NCBI RefSeq assembly: GCF_964194155.1
Contig: NC_135908.1
Coordinates: forward strand, 8,618,001 to 8,682,000
Reading direction: 5' to 3'
From: Cetorhinus maximus
Lineage: Eukaryota
DNA length: 64,000 bases
Shown here: positions 1 to 64,000 of the stretch, in pieces
Position numbering within the stretch: the first letter of the stretch is position 1
Layout: the number at the start of each line of letters is the position of its first letter
Notes under the pieces: generated by a model
The model's input: only the letters and a program-made list of their open reading frames with translations
What the model was told of the DNA's origin: nothing
Databases searched by the model: none
Made by a program: the position numbers and the translations under genes

Positions 1-2029
1 GACCAACATTACTCCTTCAACTAATTCCAACCAAAAACGCATTAAATGGTCATTCTGTTTTTGACATCTTGTTGTGCACATGATGGCTGCCGTATCTACT
101 TCCACAAGATAAGCCACTGCACTTTAAAACATAACTCACGGTAGGTGAACTGATTGGGCATGCTGTATAAATTCAAGTTACTCTTCTCCATTGAATAAAA
201 CTCTAGAATATCCGTTGGCTGCCACATTTCTGCCACTTGAATGAGGCCTGCTGCCCTTCTCCTCCACCCACTCCTGGCAGCACAGTTATCGTGTCCCACA
301 GACTAGTGGATAAACCTCAATCTCTATTCAGGTCTGGAATCTCTAATCCTATTCCCAAAACGAACTGTTTTGAAAAAGGTTGTAATGACTTCCAGCCACG
401 ATGTGTTGTACGAGCTGTATCAACTCTACGAAAAGCACCAGGGCTGGAAATAAAACTCGAAACCCAAAGCGTTCAGCGTGCACCTCGTGGATAAGTTTCA
501 GCCTATGCACAAAGCAGGTGATCTGTGAAACAGGGAGATCCAGGTATTTTATCTTCAAATGTGGTAGGGATTGGTCTTCCATGCACGAGGATAAACTGAA
601 ATCCAGACGTGCCTGTTGGCTGGAATCAACCCATGTGAACAACATTGATGCTGTTTCTAAAGAGTATGGACCCAAAGGAGGGTTTATAAGGGAAATGGAA
701 AACGGTCACACAAGAGCACTGGATGGGGTGGGGGAGATGGTGGTGTCTCCTCTGAGGTTGAGGGATTTTATTGGGTAGAAGTGCAGAGGGACTATACTCT
801 GCATCGATGTACAAGTGGTGACCAGTCTCTCACATGGACCAGCTTGCTCCCCAGCACTGGTCAAACTCATAAACCCATTGCCAAGGTGATGCCCTCCTAT
901 CAATGGCCAATAGACTACATGATGTGTGACTGACCTACACAGGAAGGTGCCAGGTTCAACCTGATCTCAGTTGAGGCAATAAAAGAACTGCAATCAGTCT
1001 CAGTGCCCCAGAAGAGAGAGGGGGGAAATCATTCCGGTCTCCTGTTACTGATAGAAGGGTTACTTTTCAATTATTTTCAAGATGTGGGTGTAAAATCCTA
1101 TCTAATGTTGATTGTCAATATTTACAGACACTACACCACACAAGCTGTACAAGTAGCTCGGAATGTTGTAGGAATCTCATTTGTAGCCTCCACACAAAGT
1201 AGAAGATGCTACCTAATCTTTAACCATTTCATACCCAAATAGAATGACTAGGAGGAGGGTAAAGAGCAGAGAGAAATTATTAAAAACAAATTTCCTTTGT
1301 TTACTGCTTGTAGCTATAAATTATAAAATTGTTCTTTATATGTGCTGATCCACATTCCTGGGGGTCACCTGTCATTCTTCTGCCATGTTTCCTGGGTCAC
1401 GAGATCCTTCTCTGTCCATTTAAACAGTAAGACACACCACAGTACGTTATTAATTCAATTTATCCAAAGGGTTTAAAGGGGCTTCCATTCCTAGCTGTAT
1501 GGGCAGTGAATAGGACAGGGCACTCTGGTTAGGGGAAGTCGGTCAGGTTTCTTGCTGCTGTGCTATCCAGTGAACCCTGACGGGTGTGTACATTTAACAA
1601 GATTGAATAGCATCACAGTTAAATAGCTCACTGACATTCATGAAGAAATGTCACAGGTGAAGAGTTGTAGGGCGGTGTTGAAGCGGGTATTGGTTGTCTG
1701 CCAGATCCTGCACGGGGACAGAGGAGAAAAGGTAGAACTGAAGAGGCTTCAAGGCTCAGTTTACCTCTGACCTGGTAACCCCAAAGGAAATCCTCCCTCA
1801 ATTCTGCCATGGCAACCGTTTCCTGATCTCTTACACATTTACGCTTTGCTTGCTGTCATGCAGCCTAATAACAGGTTCACAAATGGAGAGACATTTATCT
1901 GTACAGGGATTGACTTGCACGCAACTCATGAGTCGAGGTTTCACCCTCTCCTCTCATTGGTTATCAACCAAGAGGCTCAGGATCCCTCTCCCGTGAAGCA
2001 GGAAGATCCAGATTTTCCCTCTTCGGTCT

Positions 2030-3875
2030 CTCTCCCTCCTTAATCCTGGGGGTCGGTCTCTCGCTCCCTCCCTCCTTAATCCTGGGGGTCGGTCTCTCGC
2101 TCCCTCCCTCCTTAATCCTGGGGGTCGGTCTCTCTCTCCCTCCGTCCTTAATCCTGGGGGTCGGTCTCTCGTTCCCTCCCTCCTTAATCCTGGGGGTCGG
2201 TCTCTCGCTCCCTCCCTCTTTAATCCTGGGGGTCGGTCTCTCGCTCCCTCCCTCCTTAATCCTGGGGGTCGGTCTCTCGCTCCCTCCCTCCTTAATCCTG
2301 GGGGTCGGTCTCTCGCTCCCTCCCTCTTTAATCCTAGGGGTCGGTCTCTCGCTCCCTCCCTCCTTAATCCTGGGGGTCGGTCTCTCTCTCTCCCCCTCCT
2401 TAATCCTGGGGGTCGGTCTCTCTCTCTCCCCCTCCTTAATCCTGGGGGTCGGTCTCTCTCTCTCCCCCTCCTTAATCCTGGGGGTCGGTCTCTCTCTCCC
2501 CCTCCTTAATCCTGGGGGTCGGTCTCTCTCTCTCTCCCTCCTTAATCCTGGGGGTCGGTCTCTCTCTCCCTCTTTAATCCTGGGGTATCTTTCTCTCAGC
2601 AATCCTAGGGTTTCTCCTTCGTTGCCCCAGCGTTTCTCTGTCTCCCTCATTAATTCTAGGGTCTCTCTCTCTCTCCCCCCCACATTAATCCTAGGGTCTC
2701 TCTATCCCCCATATTAATTCTAGGGTCCCTCTCTCTCACTCTCTCCCACATTAATCCTAGGGTCTCTCTCTCTTCCCCCCAACGTTAATCCTAAGGTCTC
2801 TCTCGCTCTCCCAACCCCATGTTAATCCTAGGGTCTCTCTCTCTCTCTCCCCCAACGTTAATCCTAGGGTCTCTCTCGCTCTCCCAACCCCATGTTAATC
2901 CTAGGGTCTCTCTCTCTCTTCCCCCCCCCCACGTTAATCCTAGGGTTTCTCTCTCTCCCCCCCACCGCCTCCCCCCACATTAATCCTAGGGTCTCTCTCT
3001 CTCTCTCTCCCCCCCCCCCACCATGATAATCCTAGGGTCTCTCTCTCCCCACCCCCCTTGATAATCCTAGGGTCTCTTTCTCTCCCCCCACCCACGTTAA
3101 TCCTAGGTTCTCTCTCTCTCTCCCACCCACGTTAATCCAAGATTCTCTCTCTCTCTCTCCCACGTTAATCCTAGGTTCTCTCTCTCTCCCCAATTAATCC
3201 TAAATTCTCTCTCTCTCCCCCCACGTTAATCCTAGGTTCTCTCTCTCTCTCTCCCCCAGTTAATCCTAGGTACTCTCTCTCTCCTCTACATTAATCCTAG
3301 GTTCTCTCTCTCTCTCTCCCACCCACGTTAATCCTAGGTTCTCTCTCTCTCTCTCCCACCCACATTAATCCTAGGTTCTCTCTCTCTCTCCCACCCACGT
3401 TAATCCTAGGTTCTCTCTCTCTCTCTCTCTCCCCCACCCACGTTAATCCTAGGTTCTCTCTCTCTCTCTCTCCCACCCACGTTAATCCTAGGTTCTCTCT
3501 CTCTCTCCCACCCACCCACATTAATCCTAGGTTCTCTCTCTCTCTCCCACCCACGTTAATCCTAGGTTCTCTCTCTCTCCCACCCACGTTAATCCTAGAT
3601 TCTCTCTCTCTCCCACGTTAATCCTAGATTCTCTCTCTCTCTCCCACCCACATTAATCCTAGATTCTCTCCCTCTCTCTCCCACGTTAATCCTAGGTTCT
3701 CTCTCTCTCTCCCACCCACATTAATCCTAGGTTCTCTCTCTCTCTCCCACCCACGTTAATCCTAGATTCTCTCTCCCACCCACATTAATCCTAGGTTCTC
3801 TCTCTCTCTCTCTCTCTCACCCACGTTAATCCTAGATTCTCTCTCTCACCCACGTTAATCTTGGGGTCTCTCTCC
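2030..3875. repeat. Minisatellite: 36-bp unit CCTTAATCCTGGGGGTCGGTCTCTCGCTCCCTCCCT grading into TTAATCCTAGG(G/T)T(CT)n-CCCAC variants
   Basis: Tandem units are directly visible and explain the 12-aa repeat ORF 1964..2683. Confidence 0.97.
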
Positions 3876-5782
3876 CCCTCTATAGTTTATTCTGTGATCT
3901 CTCTCGGGATAAACCAGTTGCAAAGCGGAAGTTAGTTTCCCGCCATCAGGCGGCCTCACCCACCTCCCAGTCCCTGAGGATCTGAATTTAAACTGGAAGA
4001 GTTATCGCTCGGGCAAGCTCTGTGGAGCTGCTGAGACTGGGAGTGACAGCCTGACTACCACGCTACTTGGGAGACAATTCCCTGAACGATACATTAGCAA
4101 AGTTACATAGTGAAAGAGGCACGTTTAGAAAATGGGGAGGGGTGATGAAGAATTTAAGGCAGACACTGGGACTGATGCAATCCTTTCAGACAGGGGCTCC
4201 CTGATCATCTGCATTTGCAGTTTCATTCCTGCGAGAACCTGAACCGGCCGGTTAAACAGTTTCACATCACATCCAAAGAGCTAAAGTAGAAACAGTTCAG
4301 CCGCCCCGAAAACCACGCCCTTTCGTGGATTGAAAATGCAAAGCAAGATGAGGCTGGAAACCAGGAGAAACGAGAGATTTGCCTGTCAACTTCTAATTCC
4401 GGACAGGAACTGTTAAAAAAACAAAAGCTAACCTTTCCTACCCAAGGTTAGCCTCCCCCCAACCCCACCCCCCCTCCCTTCGATCACTCAGTTCAAACCC
4501 ACAGAACAGGCTGGACCTCAGGGAAAAGGATCTCTCCAAAACACACACACACACACACTGCCTGCCAACTTTCCCCAACAATCAATTTTAAAACATGCTA
4601 AATATTTTTGGACACAGGTTACTCGTCTGATTCCCCCCCCCCCACCAACCCCCACCCCCCAACCAAAACCAAACCACCTTAATGCTGAGAGTTGCTTCCT
4701 CCAGGCGCAATTGCTGGAGTTCAAGGGGTATAACTTACAGCCATAGTGTGGTCTGACTGCTCCCGCTCCATCCACTTCGTCTGATGTGGACATCCTTAAT
4801 TCACTCTGCCCCTTCAAACCCTTACCAAAGACACGGGAAGTCTCCGCTTTCAAACAGGGTGGGCGTGCACTTCACTCTGTAAGTGCACCTCAGCCTATTT
4901 CAGCGTTTCCTCCCTTTCCCAGGCAGTTCTGGGTGTAGTTTTCGGCTTGATCATTCATCCTCACACCCCCTCTATTGCTCTCTCTCTGTATTGCACTGGC
5001 TATGCTTTCGCTTTTCCCAGTGACTCACTAACAAGTGACATATTCTTCCATACGCCTCAGGTCGATGACATTTTCTTTTACTCCAGACAGCGGTAGCTCA
5101 GTGAGCAACACTCATGCCTTTGAGTGGAAAGTTGTCTAAAGTCCAAAGATTTGAGCAAGTGACCCAGTGCTGTCATTCCCGTTGCCGTCCGCAGGAAGAG
5201 GCCGTTCAGCCCCTCCGGTCTGTTCCACCACTCAGTGAGATCATGGTGAGATCTTTATCTGAACTCCCATGTCCATTTATACCCTTGGCTAGCAAAAATC
5301 TATACATTTCAGGATAAAATGTAACACGGAGGGGACACCGCACTGTCGCAGGTGCCATTGTGTGAATGAAATGTCAAAACGAGGTCCTGTCTGTTTCTCA
5401 GGGCAACGTAAAGGAACCCATGGTATCATTTCAAAGATGATTCTCCCTGGTGTCTTCTTGTGTGTCAATACGTGTCCCTCAAACAGCATCTGGTCATCCT
5501 ATCATTGCTGTTTACATCGCTTTGCACCATTTGGCTGCTGTTTCTTACATTACAACAGGGACTACACTTCACCTAAAAGCGATTCATTGTCACTGTCGGA
5601 TATCATGAGGTCATAAAAGGCGCTACATGAATGCAAGTTCTTTCCTTTATCCCTTAAGATGAGGAATATACTTTTACTGTCCAATATTTAGTTAAAATCT
5701 CGAGGATTTTAATAGTGAGACCCGTTGTTGTGGGCTCCGGATACTGTGATCTGACACATAGACACCTTTTAAAAAATTTATC

Positions 5783-6148
5783 ATTTCATGGCATGTGGGT
5801 GTCGCTGGCAAGACCAGCATTTGTTGCCAAACCCAAATTACCCTTGAACTGAGTTGAGTGGCTTGCTAGGCCATTTCAGTCAAGAGTCAACCACATTGCT
5901 GTGGGTCTGGAATTACATGTAGACCAGGCCAGGTAAGGAAGACAGATTTCCTTCCCCAAAGGGCTAGGTAAACCAGACAATCAACAAGTTTCATCATCAA
6001 CATTACTGAGAATAGCTTTCAATTCTAGATCTGTTCATTGAATTCCACCAGCTGCCGTGGTGGGATTTGAACCCTTATCCTCAAAGCATTAGGCTAGGCC
6101 TCTAGATTATTAATCCAGCAAGAATATCACTAATCCACTGCCTCCCCT
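5783..6148 (-). mobile_element. tRNA-headed SINE-like element, same family
   Basis: Reverse complement of the same head, body and tail (ccacattgctgtgggtctgg; gggatttgaaccc). Confidence 0.85.
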
Positions 6149-6924
6149 AAACTGATGGACACCGCAGTGAGATAAGGTCAATTCTAAACCAAGAAACTGG
6201 TTTATTTGGATTATTTGATATGCACTTTTATCTATTTCCTATCACTCTTCATGTTGTAAAAGAAAATAAATTGGCCTAAGTGATGTTAAGAGTCAGTGTC
6301 TCTCTCATTCTGCCAGACTCAAAACCTCCCGTGGAGTTCTTTCCTGAGAAGGGAAGATATTGGGAGATGGACAAAGAGAGAGGGGAAACCAAATGCTTAA
6401 CCTCTGTCCCTCGTTCTGCTCCCAGTGCCTTTGCCTTTACGGCTACCCCTTCCCATTCTGCCTTTGTGACTCCACTATTGTTTCTTTCTCTGTCACCAAT
6501 CGCCCCTTTTGTTTCGATTAACTATATTTTAAAGGGAGTTCGTCTGAGGTGAGCGATAATCCTTCCCCCCCCCGCCCTTGCTGTTGGGCAGAGGGCTAAT
6601 TTCGGGCTTGGGGGTCAGCGTAAATTTATTTCAGAGGAATTTTATTTTGTTGAAGGGGAGTGTTCCAAAAGAGAAAAACTCTAAAGATAAACTTGTAGGC
6701 GAAAAGAGCAATTGACGACACCGACAATCTATTGCAACCTATCTCATGGGGCCGGTCACTCCTCTCCTTTGCCCACTGATCATACAGCTGCTGATACCCA
6801 TGGTCAACTTACTCAGTGGTTGAGATTCATGTACAACTAGCTGACAGGCAGGTGGGAGGGGGTGTTCTTTCTCTTATTAAATTCTATTATTAGTACTTCA
6901 TATGGGTCACATACGAATCCCACG

Positions 6925-7352
6925 GGTGTGATAGCAGTGGTTACGTTACTCGACTAATAATCTGGGGATGTGGAATCAAATCTCACCATGGCAGCTGGGG
7001 AATTTTAGTTCGGTTAATTAACTGAATCGGGAATAGAAAACGAGCATCAGTATTGGTGACTACTGCACTGTTGTTAAAATCTTATTCGATTTACTAATCC
7101 CTTTTAGGGAAGGAAACCTGCTGCCCTCCTTACCCAGTCTGGTCCACATTTGACCTCAGACCCACAGCAATGTGGTTCGCTATTAACTGACCTCTGCAAT
7201 GGCCTAGCAAGCCACTCAGCTGTACCAAACGGCACACCAGATGGAGTGCAGCGGTTCAAGGAGGTGGCTCGTTAATACTTTCTCAAGGGCAATTAGGGAT
7301 GGGCAATAAATGCTGGCCTAGTTCGAGACACCCATCTCTTGTGAATGAATAG
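6925..7352 (+). mobile_element. tRNA-headed SINE-like element: 5' part of the 61458 LINE joined to its 3' tail
   Basis: The head and body match 61458-61765; the tail matches the reverse complement of 42710-42830. Confidence 0.85.
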
Positions 7353-7384
7353 AAGATAACAAATCAAAATCAAAAATAGCAAAA

Positions 7385-8135
7385 ACAAAAAGGACAAACA
7401 AGGCACGGGAATACACGGTGAATGGCAGGACCTTGGGAAGTACCGAGGATCAGAGGGACCTTGGTGTGCATGTCCACCAATCCCTTAAGGCATATGGGAT
7501 ACTTGCCTTTATTAGCCGAGGCATAGAATATAAGAGCAGGGAGGTTATGCTGGAACTGTATACAACGCTGGTTAGGCCACAGCTAGAGTATTGCGTGCAG
7601 TTTTGGAATCCGCATTATAGGAAGGATGTGATTGCACTAGAGAGAGCGCAGAGGAGATTTACCAGGACGTTGCCTGGGTTGGAGAGTTTTAGTTATGAGG
7701 AGAGATCGGATAGACTGGGGTTATTTTCCCTGGAGCAGAGGAGATTGAGGGGGGACATGATTGAGGCATATAAAATTATGAGGAGCATAGATAGGGTAGA
7801 CAGGAAGGAACTTTTCCCTTTGGTGGAGGGATCAATAACCAGGGGGCATAGATTTAAGGTAAGGGGCAGGAGGTTTAGAGGGGATGTGAGGAAGAATTTT
7901 TTCATCCAGAGGGTGGTGGGAATCTGGAATTCACTGCCTGAAAGGGTGGTAGAGGCAGAAACCCTCATAACATTTAAGAAGAAGCATCTGGATGTGCACT
8001 TGCGATGCCATGGCATACAAAGCTATGGGCCTAGTGCTGGAAAATGGGATTAGAATAGTTAGGTACTTGTTTGACAGGTGCAGACTCGATGGGCCGAAGG
8101 GCCTTTTACTGTGCTGTAGACATCTATGACTCTAA
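7385..8135 (+). mobile_element. CR1 LINE 3' fragment (RT C-terminus + 3'UTR)
   Basis: ORF 7418..8053 RDLGVHV...LVRPQLEYCVQFW...RRLRGDMIE; tail gggccgaagggcc...tctatgactct. Confidence 0.95.
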
Positions 8136-8837
8136 ATCAACACTCTGATATCTGAAGTTGATAGATTTCAGTGTCCTGATTTAGGATTTATTCACTGGTA
8201 GGACAGCAGCCCATCCAAACAGCCATGCCCACTCAAGAGTACCAACCAGTGAATAAACAATTTTAAAAAGTGAGTAGAAGTTGGACAGAATTGCCAAGGC
8301 ATGTAGCCAAATTTGGTTTGGACACGCCCTTGCTGACAATGTCAGAACATCCACAATGCAAGTTAAATGCACCGGAAACATGTTAGGAAGTTTTCTCCTA
8401 ACCCACAGTGTTGCTTCTCCATTTACTTCCGTGAGATATTCAGAACTGCTCAGCTGGTGAGGTAGTTCAACAGCAAGATCAGCTATTCACTGGTTGTGGC
8501 CATGGTTCAGTGGTAGCACTCCCACCTCTGAGTTCAAGTCTCACTCCAGGACTTGAATTCAAAAATCAAGGCGAACACTCCAGTGCAGTGCCAAGGGATG
8601 CAGATTCCACTGCATTACTTCAAAGAAAAGCAGGTTATCACTGGTGTCCTGGCAAAATTTTGTCCCTCAGTCAATATCACACAGATTATCTGATTAATGC
8701 TACATGGCTGTTTGTAGGAGTTTTCTGTGTGCAAATTGGGTGCTGCATTTACTCCATTACAACAGTGACTATACTTCATTGGATGTAAAGTGCTTTGAGA
8801 TGTCTGGTCAGTGTGAAAAGTGCTATATTTTGCTATA

Positions 8838-9280
8838 TATTGGCTTATCTTATGAAGAAAGGATGGGCCTATACCCATTGGAGTTTAGAAGAATGAGAGG
8901 TGATCTTATTGAAACATATAAGATCCCGAGGGATTGGATAGGGTAAATACCAGGAGGACGTTTTCACTTGTGGGAGAGACTAGAACCAGGGGGCACAGTT
9001 TAAGAATAAGAGGTCTACCATTTAAGAGCAGGAGCATTCTTTTCTCTCAAAGGGTCGTTAGTATGTGTAATTCTTTTCCCCAGAAAGCAGAGGAGCAGGG
9101 TCATTGAATTTATTCAAGGCAGAGTTAGACAGACTTTTGATAGATAAGGGGGTCAAGGGTTACCGGGGTGGCAGATGGCAAAATGGAGGGGAGACCAAAA
9201 CCAGATCAGCCATGACTTTATTGAATGGCAGAGCAGGTTCAAAGGGTTCAATGGCCTAATCCTGCTCCTAAGTCCTATAT
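8838..9280 (+). mobile_element. CR1 LINE 3' fragment
   Basis: GLSYEER...LEFRRMRGDLIETYKI, plus the agatcagccatga...gaatggc 3'UTR. Confidence 0.85.
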
Positions 9281-10309
9281 AAATGCTCATCTTTCTTTTT
9301 ATAAAGATGTGCTGTATAAGGAATTACCTTGTTGGTATGAAACCCCTCTTCCCATTACAGTGTAAGGCCTGTCAATGAACACCTGTGTGGAGATCACCTA
9401 ATGCAACAGATAGACAAAGATTGAATCAAGTATCAATACAGCCTTTTAAGCTCAGCGACACGTTGGATAACTTTACTGAGCTATTTCTATAGCACAAGTT
9501 CAGTTAAACATTATCTTTGATGATAAGAGCTTCTGTTGCTTTTATTCAGTTTTTTAAAAATTGTGAGAGGTAGATGAACTGACAAGAACTTAAATTAGAA
9601 AGAATAGGAGTGAAGAGGAGGGGAAATCAAGAAGAAAAGATTAACTGAGATCAAGCTTTAATTTAAACCCCGTCAATTGAAGGGTGAGGGAGAGACTTTC
9701 TAGGTCCTGGGAAAGGTTCAATCAAAGCAGGAGATTGTGTGTTGTGAGTTTAACAGTGAGGAAGCACTAGGCAGCATAGTCAGAGCTTGATAAGAAAAAT
9801 AAAGCCTCATTATTAAAAAGTCATGTTAATTCAGAATATTTTCTCACACTGAAAAAGCAACTAAATGTAATCAGTGATCAATGGACTCATTTCACAGTTG
9901 TTTTAAGGTCAAAATGTCACTGAGAGTGTTCAGATTTAATTCCTGGTCATTTTTGCATCCCTCATTTTAATTGCTTCACCATTAGTGGTCAGCCTTCAGC
10001 TGCCTGGCCTTTAAGCTCTGGAATTCCCTTCCTAAACCTCTCCACCTCTCTCTCCTCCTCCAAGACAGTACTTAAAATCTATCTCTTTGACCAAGCTTTT
10101 GGTCACCTGCCTGATATGGCGCCAGGTCATATTTATTTTATAAAGCACCTTAGGACATTTTATTACATTAAGGGTGCTATCTAAATAAAGCTGTTGTTGT
10201 AAAATGACAAACTGAAGAAGTGAATTATATGGAAGACAGCTCCTCTCCATGGTTATGTTGAATCACTGCATCACACAATTGGGCACAGCACAGTCAGTTT
10301 CTGCCTTTG

Positions 10310-10362
10310 GTCGCCATCTACTGGTGGAAATCAGTGTGGACTCAGCGCAATGCCCCCTGCAA
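10310..10362 (-). promoter_or_regulatory. Putative CTCF site(s)
   Basis: Minus-strand CCACCAGTAGATGGCGA (10311-10327) matches the CCAGYAGRKGGCR core; a weaker GCAGGGGGCA lies at 10351-10360. Confidence 0.55.
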
Positions 10363-10879
10363 TCAGACAGGCTGCTGACACTCAGGCTAATTTTAATTTA
10401 ACTCATGTATACATAGGAGCCACAACATGAAAACAGGCTATTCGAGCCAACCATTCCATGTCAGTTTTTACTCTCCACGTGAGCAAAGAATCCTTAATGT
10501 TTTTACCCGGGGTTATCTGATCCCACATTCCTTCATCCACCTAACCCAATCAAATCGTCAATGTTTCTGCTTGCTTCAGCTACTAATCTGGAAGTGAATT
10601 TCACAGCCTTTGTGTAAAGAAGCTACTCCTGCTCTCTCTTCTAAATCTCTTACATTTTAACTTTTAATCAAAAGCCTCTTGCCCCAGATCTCTCAACTGC
10701 TGGAGAGAGACTGCTTCTATCTACCCCGTCCAATCATAATATTAAACACTTACATCATACCACCTGTTCCCTGTGTTTTGTGAACAAAAAATGCACAATG
10801 AAGGATTGTCACTCAGTTGAGGTAACTGAGGATGGCCAGGATCTGTAGGGGAATTTAATCTTAGTCTGCATTTTAAAAA

Positions 10880-11233
10880 ATTCGTTCATGGGCTAGGCCA
10901 TCCCTAATTGACCTTGAGAACTGAGTGGCTTGCTAGGCCATTTTAGAGGGCATTTAAGAGTCAACCACATTTCTGTGAGTCTGGAGTCACATGCAGGCCA
11001 GACCAGGCAGGGACAGCAGATTTCCTTCCCTAAGGACATTAATGAACCAGATGGGTTTGTACAACAATCAACAATAGTTTCATGGTCATCATTAGACTTA
11101 TAATTCCAGATTTAAAAAAAAAACTTAAATTCAAATTTCACCATCTGCCATGGTGGGATTCAAACTCGGGTCCCCAGTGCATTACCCTGGGTCTCTCTGC
11201 ATTACTCGTCCAGTGACAAAGCCACCGACTGCC
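10880..11233 (-). mobile_element. tRNA-headed SINE-like element, same family
   Basis: Same body, with B-box region gggattcaaactc at ~11155. Confidence 0.85.
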
Positions 11234-11658
11234 CAGTGACTTTGAGATTTGTTTAGCAGGGGGTGTAAAGGCACTTTGGATATAAAGTGTGAGAAAAGCA
11301 AAGGAAACTCCATGATCCTCACATGGAATTATCTGCACACCTCAGAATAGCTGGTTCCACTGACTAGGCTCAACTCCAAACAGGCATCTGATATCAAGCT
11401 GAAATTTCCAAGACTGCAACTCAATACTAGAAACTTGCACTCATCACACATCGATATGATTTAAATACCAAGCGCCCAATTTTGTCAAGCAATGAATATA
11501 GTTGTGACCCCAAGACAGCCTGATCCTTCCCCTCTGTTGGAGAGCTGTCGTTTTGATTCAGGCCAGTGAAGTTGCGTAGCTGATGGCTCCATTGGTAAAT
11601 GCACTTCTCTGTGAGAAGCTGAACCTCGTGAGCAGGAAGGTTCCAGTTTTTAAAATAA

Positions 11659-12022
11659 TTCATTCACTGGGGGTTGTTATTTTTAGCAAGGCCAGCGTTT
11701 ATTATCCTTGAGAAAGTGTACTGAATAACTTCTTCTGTACATTTGATTGGACTGAAATGCCTTTTCAGAGGGCAGTTACGAGTCAGCTACATTGCTGTAG
11801 GTCTGGAGGCACATATAGACCAGATCAGGTGAGGACAGCTGATTTCCTTCCCTAAAAATCCCAGATGGATTTCTACAACATTCCAGTCATTTCATATTCA
11901 CAAGTTTTTTATTCCAGATTTATTTATTAGTTGAATTAAAATTCATCCTGTTGCTATGGTGGGTTTTGAACTCATGACTCTGGGTAATTAGTCCAGGTGT
12001 GAGGACTACTGGTCCAGTAACA
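11659..12022 (-). mobile_element. Diverged copy of the same tRNA-headed SINE-like family
   Basis: acattgctgtaggtctgg, gatttccttccctaa and gggttttgaactc motifs. Confidence 0.75.
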
Positions 12023-14503: not shown

Positions 14504-15139
14504 TCATTTCTTTGACAACTGTTCGATCAGTTTTTTCCAGCTGGCTCTCTTTTGGGTGATGTAGGTTGGGGTGACGACCATCATTGGTGCCCTGCGATCC
14601 CTCCTGAGGTACTGCTCGCAAAGAGCCTCTGTATTGCACATCACATACATCCCACAATCGTAGCTGTTCTTCTGGACCGGCGCTGGCTCCTCGACGAAAG
14701 GCACTTCAGATTTGGTTCCCAGGAAGTGTTGCAGCTTCTTCGCTATCTGTCGGGCATGGCTTGCATTCATATTGCTGCAGGAATCATAGTGGCTGAAGCA
14801 GTTCCCATCTCTGTTGTAGAACAGCAAGCTCCAGTGAGACCCGCCAGCTGCCTGCACAGAGTTGTCATTGACTGCAAGGAAGACCAAGCTTTTCTGTGCC
14901 AGTGCTAGTGGCTCCAGGAAGATAGCCAGCTCCTGCTGGCTGGCCATGCACTTAATAAATTGAGTAACTTCAGGGCTGATGAAGCAGGCGCTGCCCAACA
15001 GCTCCTTGTACTGCTCAGTGGCAAAGTATTCAAAGGCAAATGCTATGATGTGGTCATTGAGCCAGTTGGGTGGGTTGAGGAGTGAGAGATCTGAGCGTCG
15101 TATCAAACTGTCGTGGTAGCTCAGTATCACTGGATCCAT
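14504..15139 (-). CDS. SENP8: Sentrin-specific protease 8 / NEDP1 / DEN1 (NEDD8-specific C48 cysteine protease), single coding exon, 211 aa
   Basis: The ORF has the MDPVILSYHDSLIR N-terminus, WLNDHII, GGSHWSLL (His), HYDS (Asp) and QKNSYDCGMYV (Gln/Cys). A splice acceptor (ctctttgtttgcag|G, exon start 15146) lies 7 nt upstream of the ATG, matching the known single-coding-exon layout. Confidence 0.97.
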   Translation of the reverse strand: MDPVILSYHDSLIRRSDLSLLNPPNWLNDHIIAFAFEYFATEQYKELLGSACFISPEVTQFIKCMASQQELAIFLEPLALAQKSLVFLAVNDNSVQAAGGSHWSLLFYNRDGNCFSHYDSCSNMNASHARQIAKKLQHFLGTKSEVPFVEEPAPVQKNSYDCGMYVMCNTEALCEQYLRRDRRAPMMVVTPTYITQKRASWKKLIEQLSKK

Positions 15140-15177
15140 GCTGTTCCTGCAAACAAAGAGGACATTTTAGGTGTAAA

Positions 15178-15395
15178 AGTAAAATGCTGCGGATGCTGGA
15201 AGTCTGAAAGAAAAACAAAAAATGCTGGAAATACTCAGCAGGTCTGGCAGCATCTGTGGAGAGAGAAACACAGTTAACGCTTCAGGTCTGTGATCTTTCA
15301 TCAGAAATAGGACAAGTTAGAAATGGAATAAGTTTTGAGCAAGTGAAAGGGTGGAGAGTGGGACGAAGAACAAAGGCAAGAGTCCGTGATTGGGA
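15178..15395 (-). mobile_element. Penelope-like terminal fragment next to the SENP8 acceptor (related fragment at ~32615-32785)
   Basis: aaatgctggaaatactcagcaggtctggcagcatctgtggagagagaaa is shared with the hairpin elements and the 55665 element. Confidence 0.75.
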
Positions 15396-16554: not shown

Positions 16555-17685
16555 GTAGCATGATTGACAGCTAATTAGCATAGGCACTACCCCTAGGGTA
16601 TGGCTGACAATGCAAAATGAGCATGGCCCTTCCCCTCTATAATGATTGACAGCTGTGACAGGTAGCCCAGCCCCACCTCCTGTGCTGATTGACAGCTGTG
16701 ACAGGACCCACAACCCGCCTCCTGTTCTGATTTAAATCTCAGTGACAGGATCCACAGCCCCACCTCCTGTGCTGATTGACAGCTCAGTGACAGGCTTCAT
16801 AGCCCCACCTCTTGTACTGATTGACAGCTCAGTGTCAGGGAGAACAGTTCCGCCTCCTGTTCTGATTGACAGCTCAGTGACAGGCAGCACAGCCCCACCT
16901 CTTGTACCAAATGACAGTTCAGTGAGATGCAGAAGAGCCCCGCTTCTTGTACTGATTGGCAGCTGTGACAGAACCCACAACCCGCCTCCTATTCTGATTG
17001 ACAGCTCAGTGACAGGGAGAATAGCTCAACCTCCTGTTCTGATTGGCAGATCAGTGACAGGTCCCACAGCACCACCTCCTGTACTGATTGACAACTGTGA
17101 CAGTGAGCACAGCCCCGCCTCCTGTACTGATTGATAGCTCAGTGAGTGAGCACAGCCCCGCCTCCTGTACTGATTGACAGCTAAGTGACAGCACAGCCCC
17201 ACCTCCTGTACTGATTGACAGCTTAGTGACAGGCAACACAGCCCCATCTCCTGTACTGATTGACAGCTTAGTGACAGGCAACACAGCCCCATCTCCTGTA
17301 CTGATTGACAGCTTAGTGACAGGCAACACAGCCCCGCCTCCTGTACTGATTGACAGCTTAGTGACAGGCAACACAGCCCCGCCTCCTGTACTGATTGACA
17401 GCTTAGTGACAGGCAACACAGCCCCGCCTCCTGTACTGATTGAGAGCTGACACAAGCAGCACAGCCCCACCTCTTGTACCGGACGATAGTTCAATGAGAG
17501 GCAGCAGGGCCCCGCCTCCTGCACTGATTGACAGGTCAGCGACATGGAGCACAGCCCCGCGCGTCCTGCACTGATTGACAGCTCAGTGACAGGGCTCCTG
17601 CAATGATTGACAGCTGACAAGATCGCTAGGCCCCACCTACCGGTAGCTCCGCTCCTACCGTCAATTGTGATTGACAGCTGAACCT
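16555..17685. repeat. Minisatellite, ~45-bp unit CTGATTGACAGCTTAGTGACAGGCAACACAGCCCCGCCTCCTGTA, in SENP8 intron 1
   Basis: TGATTGACAG starts at 17212, 17257, 17302, 17347 and 17392 (period 45). Edges are more degenerate. Confidence 0.95.
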
Positions 17686-18299: not shown

Positions 18300-18529
18300 G
18301 TGAGAGAGCGCCCGTCAGTCAGTCTATGAGAGAGCAGGACCGGGATCGCCCCAAGCTTCCTCCCGCAATCTCTGCTGCTGCTGCTAACGTACCCGGCTCG
18401 CGCCCGCGGCCATGGAGCGCGCTCCCTACGCAAGGCAACAGCGCGCGCGCGCTCGCCCTGTCTCACCGACACCTCCCCCCCACCTCACCCCGGGTAGCCT
18501 GTGCCAGTGAGAGGCGGGGGCGGGGGGGC

Positions 18530-20460
18530 ATCTCCGTATCTGGGACAGCCTGTATCCATAGGGCCATCTCTCTACCCTGGGACAGCCTGTATCCATAGGG
18601 CCATCTCTCTACCCTGGGACAGCCTGTATCCATAGGGCCATCTCTCTACCCTGGGCAGCCTGTATCCATAGGGCCATCTCTCTACCCTGGGACAGCCTGT
18701 ATCCATAGGGCCATCTCTGTACCCTGGGACAGCCTGTATCCATAGGGCCATCTCTGTACCCTGGGACAGCCTGTGTCCATAGGGCCATCTCTCTACCCTG
18801 GGCAGTCTGAGCTCATAGGGCCATCTCTCTACCCTGGGACAGCCTGTGCCCATAGGGGCATCTCTCTACCCTGGGCAGCCTGTGCCCATAGGGCCATCTC
18901 TCTACCCTGGGACAGCCTGTGTCCATAGGGCCATCTCTCTACCCTGGGCAGCCTGTGCCCATATGGCCATCTCTGTACCCTGGGACAGCCTGTATCCATA
19001 GGGCCATCTCTCTACCCTGGGGCAGCCTGTGCCCATAGGGCCATCTCTCTACCCTGGGCAGCCTGTGCCCATAGGGGCATCTCTGTAACCTGGGACAGCC
19101 TGTGCCCATAGGGGCATCTCTGTAACCTGGGACAGCCTGTGCCCATAGGGCCATCTCTGTACCCTGGGCAGCCTGTGTCCATAGGGCCATCTCTGTACCC
19201 TGGGCAGCCTGTGTCCATAGGGCCATCTCTCTACCCTGGGCAGTCTGAGCTCATAGGGCCATCTCTCTACCCTGGGACAGCCTGTGCCCATAGGGGCATC
19301 TCTCTACCCTGGGCAGCCTGTGCCCATAGGGCCATCTCTCTACCCTGGGACAGCCTGTGTCCATAGGGCCATCTCTCTACCCTGGGCAGCCTGTGCCCAT
19401 ATGGCCATCTCTGTACCCTGGGACAGCCTGTATCCATAGGGCCATCTCTCTACCCTGGGGCAGCCTGTGCCCATAGGGCCATCTCTCTACCCTGGGCAGC
19501 CTGTGCCCATAGGGGCATCTCTGTAACCTGGGACAGCCTGTGCCCATAGGGCCATCTCTGTACCCTGGGCAGCCTGTGTCCATAGGGCCATCTCTGTACC
19601 CTGGGCAGCCTGTGTCCATAGGGCCATCTCTCTACCCTGGGCAGTCTGAGCTCATAGGGCCATCTCTCTACCCTGGGACAGCCTGTGCCCATAGGGGCAT
19701 CTCTCTACCCTGGGCAGCCTGTGCCCATAGGGCCATCTCTCTACCCTGGGACAGCCTGTGTCCATAGGGGCATCTCTGTACTCTGGGACAGCCTGTGCCC
19801 ATAGGGGCATCCCTGTACCCTGGGACAGCCTGTGCCCATAGGGGCAACCCTGTACCCTGGACAGCCTGTGCCCATGGGGGTATCCCTGTACCCTGGGACA
19901 GCCTGTGCCCATAGGGGTATCCCTGTACCCTGGGACAGCCTGTGCCCATAGAGGCATCTCTGTACCCTGGGACAGCCTGTGCCCATAGGGGCATCTCTGT
20001 ACCCTGGGACAGCCTGTGCCCATAGGGGCATCTCTGTACCCTGGGACAGCCTGTGCCCATAGGGGCATCTCTGTACCCTGGGACAGCCTGTGCCCATAGG
20101 GGCATCTCTGTACCCTGGGACAGCCTGTGCCCATAGGGGCATCTCTGTACCCTGGGACAGCCTGTGCCCATAGGGGCATCTCTGTACCCTGGGACAGCCT
20201 GTGCCCATAGGGGCATCTCTGTACCCTGGGACAGCCTGTGCCCATAGGGGCATCTCTGTACCCTGGGACAGCCTGTGCCCATAGGGGCATCTCTGTACCC
20301 TGGGACAGCCTGTGCCCATAGGGGCATCTCTGTACCCTGGGACAGCCTGTGCCCATAGGGGCATTTCTGTACCCTGGGACAGCCTGTGCCCATAGGGGCA
20401 TCTCTGTACCCTGGGACAGCCTGTGCCCATTGGGGCATCTCTCTACCTGGGACAGCCTGT
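18530..20460. repeat. Minisatellite, 36-37-bp unit CCTGGGACAGCCTGTGCCCATAGGGGCATCTCTGTAC, with higher-order repeats
   Basis: Tandem units are directly visible. The 37-bp period explains the frame-cycling ORFs 19652-20465. Confidence 0.97.
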
Positions 20461-23024: not shown

Positions 23025-23450
23025 TGCATTTCTATCACACCCATCACAACCTTAGGACATCCCAAAATGCTTTACAGCTGATCAAGTACTTTTGAAGTGT
23101 AGTCACTGTTATAATGTGGAAAGCCTGATGATCAATTTGTGCACAGCAAGCTCCCATAAACAACAATATAATAATGATTAGATGATCTGTTTTTGTGATG
23201 CTGATTGAGGGATAAATATTGACCAGCGCACCAGGTAGAACTCCCCTGCTCTTCAAAATAGTGTCAAAGGATCTTCTTGCATAGGTTCATCTGTCTCATC
23301 AAAAAAAAAGTACCTCTGACAATTTAGCGCTCCCTCCATACTGCATTTAAGTGCCAGCCATAATTTTTTTACTTTGGTCCTGGAATGGGGCTTGAATCTA
23401 CAATCTTCTGACTCAGGTGAGAATGTTACCAGCTAAGCCACAGATGACAA
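23025..23450 (-). mobile_element. Deu-domain SINE copy (others at ~1-180, 5090-5645 +, 8495-8835 +, 37560-37955 +, 53345-53765 -)
   Basis: Reverse complement of the 25208 element. Confidence 0.8.
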
Positions 23451-41737: not shown

Positions 41738-44700
41738 GATCATAAGAAATAGGAGCGTAAGTAGGCCATTTGGCCCCTTGAGCCTGCTCCGCCATTCAGT
41801 AAGATCATGGTTGATCCGATGGTGGCTTTAACTTGCCTTTCCTGTAGGCCTCCCATAACCCTTGACTCACTTGTCAATCAAAAATCTGTCTAATTTGGTC
41901 TTGAATAAATTCAATGACCCAGCCTCCACCGCTGTCTGTGGCAGAGAAATTCCAAAGACTAACAACCCTCTGACAGAAGAAATTCCTCCTTTGCTCTGTC
42001 CCACTTTTTTTAACCTGTAGCCCCTAGTTTTAGATTCACCCACAAGAGGAAACATTCTCTCAACTTCTAGCCTGTCAAGCCCCCTCAAAATCTCGTATGT
42101 TTCAATAAGATCACCCCTCATTTTTCTAAACTCAGTGTCTTCCAAAAAGGTATCACAGTATCTTTACAGTGCAGAAGGAGGCCATTTGGCCCATCGAGTC
42201 TGCACTGGCTTTCTGAAAGAGCACTCCACCTAGTCCCACTCCCCTTGCCTTATCTCTGTAACCTTGCACATTCTCTCTTTACAGGTAGCAATCCAATTCT
42301 CTTTTGAATACCTCAATTGAAACTGCCTCCACCACCCTCTTAGGAAGTATGTTCCAGACTCCAACCACCCTCTGGGTGAAAGAAAATTTCCCCACATCAC
42401 GTTTACTCCTTTTGCCAATTATTTTGAATCTGTGCTCTCTAGTTCTTGATGTTCTCAACCTTTCCTCGTAAGGCAAATCCCTCACCCCAACAATCAGCCA
42501 AGTGAACTATCTCCGAACTGCACCCAATGCAAGCATGTCCCTCCTTAAATAAGTTGACCAAAACTACACCGTGCTCTATATGCAGTCTCACCAATGCCCT
42601 GTACAGCTGTAGCAAGACTTTCCTACTTATACATTCCATCCCCCTTGTAATAAAGGCCAACATTCCGCTTGCCTTCCTGTTTACTTGCTGTACCTGCAAG
42701 CTGACTTATATTCATTCATGGGATGTGGGTGTTGGTGGCTAGGCTGGCATTTATTGCCCATCCCTTATTGCCCTTAAGGTGGTGGTGAGCTGCCTTCTTG
42801 AACTGCTGCAGTCCATGTGGTGTAAGCACACCCACAGTACTGTTGGGGAGGGAGTTCCAAGGTTTTGACCCAGCAACAATGAAGGAACGGCAATATATTT
42901 CCACGTCAGAATGGTGAGTGGCTGGTAAGGGGAACTTCCAGGTGATGGTGTTCCCAGGTATCTGCAGCTCTTGTCCTTTCTAGATGATAGTGGTCATGGG
43001 TTTGGAAGGTGCAGTCCAAGGAGGCTTGGTGAGTTCCTGCAGTGCATCTTGTAGATGGTACACACTGCTGCCACTGAGCGTCGGTGGTGGAGGGAGTGAA
43101 TGTTTGTGGATGGAGTGCCAATCAGGTGGGCTGCTTCATCCTGGATGGTGTCGAGGTTCTTGAGTGTTGCTGAAGCTGCACTCATCCAGGCAAGTGGAGA
43201 GTATTCCATCACACTCCTGATTGTGCTTTGTAGATGGTTGACAGGCTTTGGGGAGTCAGGAAGTGAGGTACTCACTGCAGGATTCCTAGCCTCTGATCTG
43301 CTCTTGTAGTATTTATATGGCTAGTCCAGTTCAGTTTCTGGTCAATGGTAACCCCCCCAGGATGTTGTTAGTGGGGGATTCAGCTATGCTAATGCATTGA
43401 ACATCAAGGAGTGATGGTTGGATTCTCTCTTGTTGGAGATGGTCATTGCCTGGCACTTGTATAGTGCGAATATTACTTGCCACTTGTCAGCCTGGATATT
43501 GTCCAGGTCTTGCTGCATTTGGAAATGGACTGCTTCAGTATCTGAGGAGTCACAAATGGTGCTGAACATTGTGAAATCATCAGTGAATATCACCACTTCT
43601 GACCTTAGGATGAAGGGAAGGTCATTGATGGAGCAACTGAAGATGGTTGGGCCTAGGACACTATCCTGAGGAACTCCTGCAGTGATGTCCTGGAACTGAG
43701 ATGATTGACCTCCAACAACAACAACTATGTTCTTTTGTGCTAAGTATGATTCCAACTAGTAGAGAGTTTTCCCCTGATTTCCATTGACTCCAGTTTTGCT
43801 AGGGTTCCTTGATGCCACACTTGGTCGAATGTTGCCTTGATATCAAGGGCAGTCACACTCACCTCACCTCAGGAGTTCAGCTCTTTTGTGCTTGTTTGGA
43901 CCAAGACTGTAATGAGGTCAAGCTGAGTGGCCTTGATGGAACCCAAACTGAGCATCAGTGAGCAGGTTATTGCTAAGCAAGATAGCACTGTTGATGACCC
44001 CTTTCATTACTTTACTGATGATCGAGGGTGGACTGATGGGGCGGTTATTGTCCGAGCTTGTTTTGACCTGTTTTTTGTGTGCAGGACGTACCTGGGGAAT
44101 TTTCCGCATTGCTGGGTAGATGTCAGTGTTGTAGCTGCACTGGAACAGCTTAGCTAGGCTTGCGGCAAGCTCTGGCACACAAGGCTTCAGCACTGTTAGT
44201 GGAATATTGTCCGGGCACATAACCTTTGGAGTATCCAGTGCCTTCAGCCATTTATTGATATCACATAGAGTGAATTGAATTGACTGAAGACTGGCATCTG
44301 TAATGCTGGGGACTTTTTGTGATTCATGTACAAGGGCACAGAGGCCCCTCTGTACTGCAACATTCTGCAGTCCCTCTATTTAAATAATATTCTGCTTTTC
44401 TATTCTTCCTGCCAAAGTGGGCAGCCTCACATTTTCCCACATTGTACTCCATCTGCCAAATTTTTGCCCACTCATTTAACCTATTTCTATCCCTTTGCAG
44501 ACTCTGTATCCTCCCCACAATTTGCTTTCCTACCATTCTTCATATTGTCAGCAAATGTGGCTACAATACACTCAGTCTCTTCATTCAAGTCATTAATATA
44601 GACTGTAAATAGTTGAAGCCCCAGCACTGATCCCTGTGGCACTCCACTGGTTACAGTTTGTCATTCTGAAAATGATCCATTTATCCTGATACTGTTTCCT

Positions 44701-60780: not shown

Positions 60781-61457
60781 TTTTTAGCTCGGTCAGTGAC
60801 ATCATATATTCAAAAACCTTCATTGATTGAAACTAATACAATTGATTGTATTTCCTTCAATGCTGACTTTAGATTCTCTTAAGTGGAATAGCATGATATT
60901 CATAATAGGAGTCATAACACCCCTTCGAAGCAAAGTTTGAACTTATTAGTGAAAAGAAGTATTCTTCACAATAAGTTTCAAAGAAAAGTGCTTACTGCAT
61001 CTTAACTTTGGCAAAAAGGTTTCTGACTTTGACAAAAAATATAAGCACCAGCTTATTTTTGAATTGGAATGTAATTTTGTTGGGTATTATTGGTTCTTTT
61101 CATTATGTTGCTTGTTGTGATGTACTGATGATTTGCTGCTCAGTTGATGGTAAATATGCTACCAACCCTTTCATATTACCATAACAACAGTCAGTTTTAG
61201 CTGGCTGTGTACTCAGCTTTTGGTGTAGACTGGGCAACTTTTCTAATTGTGCACCTGTAAGCTTTTTGTTCTGTGGGAATTATTGATACCACAAGTTTTC
61301 ATTTTTGTTTTCATGAAACCCTTAATTTAAAAAATAAAAGCCTTATAGATTTCTTTTTATTGTATCATATTTTATGGCTATATTTGAAAGGAAGTTTTGT
61401 TATTGACAATATATTGAGCTGGAACAATCTGGGAAATTGTGATGGTTGTGCTGGGAG

Positions 61458-64000
61458 GGGAGGCGATGGCGTAGTGGTATTGTCGCTGGACTAGTAATCC
61501 AGAATAATGCCCTGGGGTCCCAGGTTCGAATGATGGTGGAATTTGAATTCAATAAAAAATCTGGAATTAAAAGTCTAATGATGACTATGAAACTATTGTC
61601 AATTGTTGTAAAAACTCATTTGGTTCACTAATGTCCTTGTGGGACAGAAATCTGCTGTCCTTACCTGGTCTGGCCTACATGCGACCCCATACCCACAGCA
61701 ATGTGGTTGACTCTGAAATGCCCTCTGAAATGTCCTAGCAAGCCACTCAGTTGTATCAAACCGCTACAAAGTCTCAAAAAAGGAATGAAACCAGATGGAC
61801 CACTTGGCGTCGACCTAGGCACCGGCAATGACAATGGCAAACTCAGCCCTGTCAATCCTGCAAAGTCCTCCTTAATAACACCTGGGGAAAATTGGGAGAT
61901 CTGTCTCACAGACTAGTCAAGCAACAGCCTGAAATAGTCATCCTCATAGAATCATATCTTACGGATAATGTCTCAGACACCATCACCATCCCTGGGTACG
62001 CACAGTGGTATACGGTCAGGAGGAAGTTGCCCTGGGAGTCCTCAACGTCGTCTCCAGACCCCATCAAGTCAAACGTGGGCAAGGCAACCCTCTGCTGATT
62101 ACGATGTACTGGCCTCCCTCAGCTAAGGGTGGCAAGGGCGCAGAATGTACTCTGGGTGTGGGACTTCAATGTCCATCACCAAGAGTGGCTCAGTAGCACT
62201 GCTACTGTCCGAGCTGGCTGAGTCCTAAATGCCATAGCAGCTAGACTGGACCTGCGGCAGACGGTGAGGGAACCAACAAGAGGGAAAAACATACTTGACC
62301 TCATCCTCACCAACCTGCCTGCCGCAGATGCATCTGTCCATGACAGTATCAGTAGAAGTGACCACCGCACAGTTGTTGTGGAGATGAAGTATCACCTTCA
62401 CATTGAGTTTACCTTCCATCGTGCCCTGTGGCACTACTGCCCTGCTAAATGGGATAGATTTCGAACAAATCTAGCAACTCAATACTGGGCATCCATGAGA
62501 CTCTGGGCCATCAGCAGCTGCAGAATTGTATTCGAATATAACCTGTAAACTCATGGCCAAGCATATCCCTCACTCTACCATTTCCATCAAGCCAGGGGAT
62601 CAACCATGGTTCAATGAAGAGTGCAGATGGGCATGCAGCACCAGGCATACCTAAAAATGAGGTGTCAACTTGGTGAAACTATAACACAGGACTACTTGCA
62701 TGCTGAACAGAGCTAAGCAATTCCACAATCAACAGATCAGATCTAAGTTCTGCAGTCCTGCCACACCCAATAGTGAAAGGTGGTGGGCAATTAAGCAACT
62801 CGCCGGAGGAGGAGGCCCTACAAATATCCCCATCCTCAATGATGGGAGAGCCCAGCACATCTGTGCAAAAAACAAGGCTGAAGCATTTGCTACAATCTTC
62901 AACCAGAAGTGCCAAGTGGATGATCCATATCGGCCTCCTCTGGAGGTCCCCAGCATCACAGATGCCAGTCTTCAGCCAATTCAATTCACTCCACATGATA
63001 TCAAGAAACGGCTGAAAGTGCTGAATACTGCATAAGCTATGGGCCCTGACAATATTCCGGCAATAGTACTGTGCTCCAGAACTTGCCATGCCCCTAGCCA
63101 ATCTACAACACTGGCATCTACCTGGCTATGTGGAAAATTGCCCAGTTATGTCCTGTACAAAAAAAGCAGGACAAATCCAACCCAGAACAATTACCGCCCC
63201 AACTGTCTACTCTTGATCATCAGTAAAGTAATGGGAGGGGTCATTAACAGTGCTATGAAGTTTCACTTGCTTAGAAATAACCTGCGCACGAGTGCTCAGT
63301 TCAGGTTCCGTCAGGGCCACTCAGCTCCTGACCTCATTACAGGTTTAAACATGGACACAAGAGCTGAACTCCCGAGGTGAGGTGAGAGTGACTGCCCTTG
63401 ACATCAAGGCTGCACTTGACTGAATGCGGTATCAAGGAGCCCTAGGAAAACTGGAGTCAATGGGAATCCGGGGTGGGGGGGGAACTCTCCGCTGGTTGGA
63501 GTCAAACCTTGCACAAAGGAAGATGGTTGTGTTTGTTGGAGGTCAATCATCTCAGCTCCAGGACACCACTGCAGGAGTTCCTCAGGGTAGTGTCCTAGGC
63601 CCAACCATTTTCAGCTGCTTCATTAATGACCTTCCTTCCATCATAAGGTCAGAAGTGGAGATGTTTGCTGATGATTGCACAATGTTCAGCACCATCCATG
63701 TCTCCTCAGATACTGGAACAGTCCATGTCCAAATGCAGCAAGACCTGGACAATAGCCAGGCTTGGGCTGACAAGTGGCAAGTAACATTCGCACAACACAA
63801 TTGCTGGGCAATGACCATCTCCAACAAGAGAGAATCCAACCATCACCCCTTGACGTTCAATGGCATTACCATCACTGAATCCCCCACTATCAACATCCTG
63901 GAGGCTACCATTGAGCAGAAACTGAACTGGAGTAGCCATATAAATACTGTGGCTACAAGAGCAAGTCAGAGTCTCAGAATCCTGCGGCAAGTAACTCACC
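61458..64000 (+). mobile_element. Decayed non-LTR retrotransposon (APE endonuclease + RT, CR1/Jockey-group-like) with a tRNA-derived 5' head and no ORF1; runs off the window
   Basis: A-box TGGCGTAGTGG (61467-61477) and B-box-like GGTTCGAAT (61523). EN motifs VKQQPEIVILIES, DFNVHH, PTRGKNILDLILTN, SDH. RT motifs GPDNIP, NYRP, QFRFRQGHS, GVPQGSVLGP, FADD. Confidence 0.88.

Follow-up and report, generated by a model that had tools for sequence, protein, structure and literature searches.

Results

A Zenon-type LINE and its short derivatives

We analyzed a stretch of 64,000 nucleotides (nt) of the Cetorhinus maximus genome (contig NC_135908.1, positions 8,618,001 to 8,682,000), hereafter called the window. 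It contains four short repeats, named S1 to S4, and copies of a Zenon-type long interspersed element (LINE) that opens with a tRNA-like head (Table 1). The four short copies consist of the first ~290-335 nt and the last ~70-120 nt of this 3.3-kb LINE, which has one open reading frame (ORF), and it is likely that such copies had at least two separate origins. The original prediction, made from the letters of the window alone, had described four copies resembling short interspersed elements (SINEs) that share the head and body of one part of the window and the tail of another. These copies are real and lie near the positions it gave; their head and body match 61457-61768 and their tail matches 42706-42823. 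The cited head and tail do belong to the same LINE family, but to two separate LINE copies.

Table 1. Positions of the LINE, its short copies and other features in the window
Feature	Position	Strand	Remarks
Short copy S1	5777..6148	-	old-type head/body with LINE tail; class J1; private 5-nt tandem duplication
Short copy S2	6925..7355	+	decayed old-type head; long class JL, ref 325/3165
Short copy S3	10880..11233	-	young-type head; class J2; tail partly deleted
Short copy S4	11659..12022	-	old-type head; heavily decayed long-type junction, ~ref 316/3190; weak tail
Decayed near-full-length Zenon-type LINE copy, young-type head	61457..64000	+	runs beyond the window; RVT_1 at 63424-63999
tRNA-like head of LINE	61458..61550	+	A-box-like 61467-61477, B-box-like 61523-61531
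5' untranslated region (UTR) body common to LINE and short copies	61551..61768	+	class 5' breakpoints (ref 290, 313, ~325-335) at body end
Separate 5'-truncated copy of the same LINE	42706..44313	-	ref 1653-3285; source of the tail cited in the original prediction
LINE tail	42706..42823	-	ORF end, predicted 3' stem-loop, A-rich end; common to short copies
220-codon uninterrupted frame with Ulp1/Peptidase_C48 domain	14507-15166	-	domain search
CR1-type LINE pieces	7349-8100, 48991-50600, 51992-52525, 59052-60195	+, -, -, 	one starts directly after S2
Second dispersed SINE-like family	~8490-8780, 5531-5647, 23011-23275, 25328-25647		
Three long minisatellite arrays	2027-3881, 16620-17638, 18525-20564		units ~36 nt; third ~90% identical
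MITE-like (miniature inverted-repeat transposable element) palindromic repeats	27312-27509, 47890-48126, 15174-15307, 56425-56516		near-perfect inverted halves, ~93% over 170-190 nt

Mapping was done on a majority sequence, 3,287 nt long, that was derived from 17 near-full-length copies of the LINE and whose coordinates are designated "ref"; a junction is written as the two ref positions that it joins. S1 aligns at ref 2-310 (6147-5855; E 4e-54) and, with its tail, at ref 3214-3284 (5847-5777; E 1e-9). The head of S1 is of the old type by score, with diagnostic sites of 6 old versus 5 young and a divergence of 14%. S2 covers ref 165-325 (7069-7233) and tail ref 3165-3285 (7234-7354). For S3 the alignment spans ref 19-313 (11225-10919) at 87%, followed by a short tail, and its head has 9 young sites versus 1 old and a divergence of 7.6%. 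S4 aligns at ref 101-316 (11944-11738), and its tail reaches an alignment score of only 25. All four are built exclusively from the two ends, 5' and 3', of a LINE that is itself autonomous, as are short internally deleted elements (SIDEs).

The majority sequence contains one stop-free frame of 944 codons with an endonuclease domain (PF14529, E 4e-11) and a reverse transcriptase (RT) domain (PF00078, E 1e-32), and no ORF1. The full-length copies shown have the A-rich end of a poly-A tail; the LINE tail of the copy starting at 61457 lies just beyond the window edge (L091:3360-3557). The first 400 nt of the LINE agree, when compared by eye, with CarCar_Zenon-1 and six more elasmobranch Zenon consensuses. 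In a protein search, homologous fragments carry shark and ray names, and the closest non-chondrichthyan proteins are 35-37% identical across the whole length. The LINE and its short copies make up ~8.5% of a random sample of this 4.0-Gb genome, and a rough extrapolation from 23 short copies in 980 kb gives a total of ~90,000.

In the random sample, approximately one in five LINE copies has kept the 5' end, with a coverage of 11-12 at ref 330-600 versus 50-58 at ref 3100-3180, a rate that seems high for an element of the CR1 group. Inverted 3' pieces adjoin several LINE 5' ends (loci L002, L007 and L008). Predicted shark host proteins (P0001, P0002, P0007, P0010 and P0011) hold pieces of the LINE ORF at 70-86% identity, which reflect either exonization or gene-model error.

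The short copies fall into four junction classes

Split alignment of 238 distinct elements anchored in the head and body identified 153 that are joined to a downstream part, 78 that continue as LINE and 7 that end. One mis-anchored duplicate (L171) was excluded before classing, and 29 "other" junctions and 5 mid-ORF deletions fall outside the classes. Four classes were distinguished: J1 (ref 313/3215), J2 (313/3213), J0 (290/3215) and the long class JL (~312-345/3165-3190), the last of which is heterogeneous. The 3' breakpoints of J0, J1 and J2 all lie within 3 nt (ref 3213-3215), and J2 retains two tail nucleotides that are absent from J1. S1 belongs to J1, S3 to J2, and S2 and S4 are long-type; J0 is not present in the window.

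Exact junction words occur 1541 (J1), 250 (J2) and 2435 (J0) times genome-wide and controls 0 times; the word for continuation into the LINE or JL occurs 2518 times. J1, J2 and J0 have been amplified as units with a shared junction, another property of SIDEs. In a random sample of 98 arbitrarily placed 10-kb stretches we found 37 elements, comprising 10 LINEs, 2 ending elements, 2 mid-ORF joins and 23 short copies. When the junctions of these 23 were read individually, 6 were J1, 6 J0, 3 J2-type, 4 long-type and 4 others.

The three junction strings given in the original prediction had been quoted correctly, and none was supplied for S4. Its reading of them as different breakpoints holds insofar as real classes exist, and we found no single ancestral junction that mutation could have blurred. 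The extra letters of S1, on the other hand, are a 5-nt tandem duplication in this copy alone, which has the J1 junction. The remaining gap between the junctions of S1 and S3 is 2 nt only and is by itself insufficient to show two events.

A microhomology between a word at ~61790 and the tail had also been cited near the S2 junction. We reject this candidate on three grounds. The 5' part of S2 ends at the equivalent of window position 61768, ~25 nt ahead of this site; what is read there in the LINE copy of the window is a state produced by CpG decay (CCGGACGGA is present in 12 of 45 LINE copies and CCAGATGGA in 8 of 45); and the ACACCAGATG of S2 is also present in LINE tails (loci L132 and L289).

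Two head lineages are shared by LINEs and short copies

The old and young heads differ by 17 substitutions, 13 of them outside CpG, and by indels totalling 10 nt. Head type follows junction class. J1 heads are mostly old (43 old, 5 young and 2 untyped; n=50) and J2 heads mostly young (32 young, 2 old and 7 untyped; n=41), and the association between head type and these two classes is strong (Fisher p=3e-15). No old head was found in J0, neither among the 11 copies typed initially (9 young, 2 untyped) nor among 20 more (16 young, 4 untyped). JL heads are old (20 of 23, with 2 untyped), and the single young-scored copy, L152, belongs in fact to J2 and carries a duplication. Both types also occur on LINEs: 78 LINE heads comprised 62 young, 6 old and 10 untyped, the old ones including the full-length copies L114 and L154 of the random sample, and 9 further old-type LINE heads were found among 30 loci. 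The majority sequence of 12 old-type LINE heads is nearly that of the J1 head. Both types extend beyond this species: the SquAca Zenon consensuses in the supplement of PMC13343379 carry the old-type body insertion, and those of CarCar and ScyCan are of the young type.

Head trees were built from 88 and 96 rows, using copies that cover at least ~200-225 nt and were subsampled by class. The tree divides into two halves (support 99/97), each containing LINEs and short copies. Forcing the 61 short copies to be monophyletic, with 8 old-type LINE heads added, cost 118 log units, and a single clade is rejected (approximately unbiased (AU) test, p-AU 0.0012). The tails also differ: the same variant position reads C in 19 of 21 scored old-headed J1 copies versus T in 14 of 15 young-headed J2 copies, and the LINE tail variant matched by J2 and J0 is an intermediate one, not the commonest young one.

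Median non-CpG divergence, in samples biased by the way copies were found, is 12.4% for old-type LINEs (n=4), 10.5% for JL, 9.1% for J1, 8.0% for J0, 7.5% for J2 and 5.6% for young-type LINEs. Old-type LINEs are as diverged as old-type short copies, and none of the short classes predates a head-bearing LINE; the opposite order of ages was what the original prediction had named as fatal to its proposal. One further short copy (L035:~1440-1810) combines a young head, 4.6% diverged, with the J1 junction and the tail variants of the commonest young LINE; it may stem from a new deletion at the breakpoint of J1 or from recombination.

Several points speak against separate origins. An AU test with 27 LINE heads, few of them old-type, gave a cost of 55.5 log units and a p-AU of 0.064, and the 8 heads added for the second test were picked as old-type. 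Head swapping onto one ancestral SINE would likewise break monophyly. The link between class and head is imperfect (5 young-headed J1 and 2 old-headed J2 copies). Of the diagnostic sites, the one closest to the junction is unclean, with 13 young-type LINEs among 30 loci picked for the old state. From the discordant copies and this site it follows that recombination occurs or that sites recur.

The prediction that SINEs arose repeatedly is thus supported for at least two origins, with class tracking head lineage, but its step from different junctions to separate deletions does not extend to four. At least two origins are likely and four are possible; four independent origins are unproven because J0 may have formed by further deletion within J2, and J1 likewise within JL.

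A native tRNA-like head on the LINE

The original prediction took the tRNA-like head to be a native part of the LINE, and this is borne out. At 19 of 20 fetched loci with a head and 5' UTR, the LINE tail lies 2.3-4 kb downstream on the same strand, L099 being the exception. Flanking sequences are unrelated among the 17 head-bearing loci shown. The supplement of PMC13343379 lists seven Zenon consensuses from elasmobranchs, and all of them open with the same head, as judged by eye over their first 400 nt.

The best tRNA match of the family-majority head is tRNA-Ser(AGA), with a score of 69 versus a shuffle maximum of 44, among seven tRNA types represented by 27 sequences of the same genome. Thr(AGT), Gln and His were left out of this set, and the head loop reads AGT. 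The head contains A- and B-box-like motifs, called with the box consensuses. In this head with its boxes and in a 3' tail in common with a partner LINE, the short copies agree with SINE2 elements.

In the hagfish and coelacanth Zenon consensuses the head was not seen in the first 400 nt, inspected by eye. We infer that the head was joined to the LINE before sharks and rays split. The contention of the original prediction that SINEs arose by deletion, rather than by a tRNA head acquiring a LINE tail, holds for the short families, but the head itself must at some time have been joined to a LINE. Invertebrate relatives were looked for in metagenome data: in 7 examined of 12 loci no A/B-box pattern was present upstream. 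These 7 homologues are only 25-33% identical and lack the depletion of T4 runs described below; because they are too distant, they are unusable for dating the head.

A depletion of T runs and the translation of the LINE

Runs of four Ts terminate transcripts of RNA polymerase III (Pol III) in vertebrates. In random DNA, the coding strand of the Zenon LINE has 0.37 T4 runs per kb (67 ORF segments), versus 3.83 on the opposite strand and 4.37 on the coding strand of CR1-type LINEs (51 segments), which served as the control; the difference from CR1 is ~12-fold. The majority coding strand contains no T4 run and 6 T3 runs, versus 46, 50 and 41 runs of three for A, C and G. We also compared the ORF with a codon null, in which the protein was fixed and synonymous codons were drawn by four-fold base content: 4 T3 runs were observed versus 23.7 expected, and 0 T4 runs versus 4.9 (P=0.0015). 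The phenylalanine content is 1.9%, versus 2.3-5.9% in 12 homologues.

This depletion is a hint that Pol III may transcribe the LINE. The short forms, and probably the full LINE as well, may use the head as a Pol III promoter, and we consider Pol III transcription of the full LINE somewhat more likely than not. Other results point the other way. ARAGORN called no tRNA in the window, nor did Rfam in the one head submitted; the T4 depletion loses significance once codon usage (P=0.09) or di- or trinucleotide content (P=0.24 and 0.67) is held at that of the element itself; and the sense strand carries five AATAAA/ATTAAA signals, so that Pol II may instead transcribe the LINE. For 4 of 24 listed sequencing runs, all available as contigs and three only presumed to be RNA, depth tracks the 3'-heavy copy profile, and strand, start and polymerase are not readable from them. 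A metatranscriptome run labelled as coral contains thousands of contigs of the shark element, likely through cross-contamination.

The first ATG of the LINE frame is at codon 113, within the endonuclease. The beginning of the endonuclease frame is overlapped by a short frame that lies upstream (ref ~345-470, window ~61786-61890), and the ATG that opens this short frame is also present in the shark and ray Zenon-1 consensuses. This frame may serve reinitiation or frameshifting.

Internal deletions of the LINE

Apart from the short classes, LINE copies contain 27 one-off internal deletions with unique breakpoints. Their mean microhomology is 2.0 nt versus 0.70 nt for random pairs, and 6 of 27 have at least 3 nt versus 6% of pairs, a measure inflated by the choice of breakpoints from best alignments. 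The class junctions themselves hold only 0-2 nt of microhomology (1, 2 and 0 nt). Target-site duplications did not exceed the control (2 of 23 copies versus 1), in copies that are 7-15% decayed.

The majority sequence of each of the four classes is predicted to fold with a 6-bp helix that pairs body and tail and closes the junction loop. It is absent from the predicted full-length fold, in which the tail ranks only fifth as partner of that body stretch, and any role of this putative helix is speculation.

Other features of the window

The 220-codon frame (Table 1) looks like the host gene of the region and resembles the deneddylase SENP8. The CR1-type piece at 51992 gave an SGNH/esterase-type match. 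The second SINE-like family may resemble the Deu-type SacSINE1.

Discussion

The reading that we favor, with a probability of roughly 0.78, is that the short copies are internal deletions of the head-bearing LINE and had at least two origins. Internal deletion would have occurred at least twice, once from each of the two LINE head lineages, through template jumps during reverse transcription or microhomology repair. A deletion that keeps the whole head and body together with the tail hairpin would yield an RNA of ~360-430 nt with both a promoter and a recognition signal, and such a two-signal RNA could amplify as a SINE, likely copied in trans by the LINE enzyme. Selection may retain those deletions that preserve the entire head/body and the predicted tail hairpin.

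In the main rival explanation the short element arose once; later classes formed by nested deletion, and a newer LINE head was swapped in by template switching within a stretch of ~120 nt of the body that is identical in both lineages. The coincidence of the J0, J1 and J2 breakpoints at ref 3213-3215, the possibility of trimming the heterogeneous long class to J1, the discordant combinations of head and junction and the non-significant first AU test all fit such a history, and module exchange among SINEs is documented (PMC5499810; PMC5786205). J2, however, cannot be trimmed from J1, since it has two extra tail nucleotides; no typed young-headed copy of the long class was found, and the J1 tail variants are mostly missing from J2 and J0 tails. 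Given 27 one-off deletions, moreover, fresh origins require no special event. We regard a single origin with head swapping as unlikely. The copies could instead be dead-on-arrival deletions, each made once at insertion and never propagated, as the frequency of one-off deletions and the variation of long-class junctions between copies would allow. The counts of identical junction words (250-2435 genome-wide) refute this for J0, J1 and J2, and J1 has its own tail variants; the idea is tenable at most within part of the long class and is very improbable as a general explanation.

A reversed order of events, in which a SINE made of a tRNA head, an unrelated body and a LINE tail came first, the LINE captured its 5' part and the short copies descend from the old SINE, has in its favor that a tRNA-derived head necessarily came from a tRNA or a SINE at some point. 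Lepidopteran Persaeus, including the Zenon 5' UTR, is described without tRNA homology in PMC6740152, and the hagfish and coelacanth consensuses show no visible head, which implies that the head was gained. Against a SINE ancestor stand the head-bearing LINE in shark and ray consensuses and the divergence of old-type LINEs, which matches that of any short class in these small and biased samples. Long-class copies, in addition, carry LINE sequence that extends beyond the body, together with as much as ~120 nt from the ORF end, and each short class bears the head state of a LINE lineage. The SINE-first order is very improbable. The ray among the shark and ray consensuses is HypSab.

Several known systems come close to the shark elements. 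The elasmobranch Zenon LINEs CarCar_Zenon-1, HypSab_, RhiTyp_, ScyCan_ and SquAca_Zenon-1/2/3 (PMC13343379) resemble the LINE described here in their length of ~3.3 kb, the lack of ORF1, the endonuclease and RT, and the A-rich tail; the first 400 nt, to which the comparison by eye was limited, are nearly identical. The main text of that report mentions neither tRNA nor polymerase III and contains the word SINE once, in a reference; the passages covered describe neither the head nor short derivatives. The closest parallel for the deletion is Persaeus, a SIDE of Zenon in Lepidoptera that is likewise internally deleted and consists of the Zenon 5' UTR, ORF end and 3' UTR; it is 263-386 bp long and of high copy number, with at least four independent origins, for which template jumping was proposed (PMC6740152). 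In that account, Persaeus lacks both homology to tRNA and a Pol III promoter, and its breakpoint is flanked by a direct repeat of 5 bp. The shark copies, in contrast, have a tRNA-headed parent, 0-2 nt of junction microhomology and probably repeated origins inside one genome, and with their tRNA-Ser-like head they depart from the definition of SIDEs used for Persaeus, which lack a small-RNA head.

The combination of tRNA head, LINE 5' UTR and LINE 3' end is known from Bov-tA, AfroSINE, SINE2-1_ACar and CoeSINE4 (PMC5786205). In these bipartite SINEs, according to that source, the head was gained after the deletion through a template switch, and the LINEs involved are confined to RTE and Vingi, whereas the shark head is already on the LINE. 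The same source mentions RTE-1_DAn in passing as one LINE with a tRNA-like sequence. Among the SINEs of cartilaginous fishes, HE1 (a V-SINE with partner HER1), SacSINE1 and the CmiSINEs are also tRNA-headed with LINE-derived tails, but their descriptions set them apart by V, Deu or CORE bodies and HER1 or L2 tails, the shark body being the Zenon 5' UTR; the head of the CmiSINEs is of tRNA-Ala type, and these elements did not turn up in the elasmobranchs searched (PMC3747384; PMC5499810). A LINE that is already tRNA-headed and yields a SINE-like element by deletion alone was not found in the literature searched, whose scope did not include Repbase, Dfam and several key papers; a Repbase or Dfam entry for this head or the short families may exist.

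A wider scenario, on which we are evenly divided, is that in sharks and rays a captured tRNA-Ser head drives Pol III transcription of the LINE from end to end, that T runs were purged over its 3.3 kb and that a new SINE family was born with each turnover of head lineage. In the usual model (PMC5786205), a small-RNA head is joined to LINE-derived parts; here a single deletion would be enough. Such deletion has apparently been repeated along one LINE lineage and would provide a datable series of SINE births, and the elements constitute a concrete case in which the body of a SINE is the 5' UTR of a LINE. If the parent is a Pol III transcript, it would be a protein-coding Pol III RNA of 3.3 kb that has no in-frame AUG ahead of the endonuclease domain, and LINE RNA made in this way would raise the question of how an uncapped RNA is translated.

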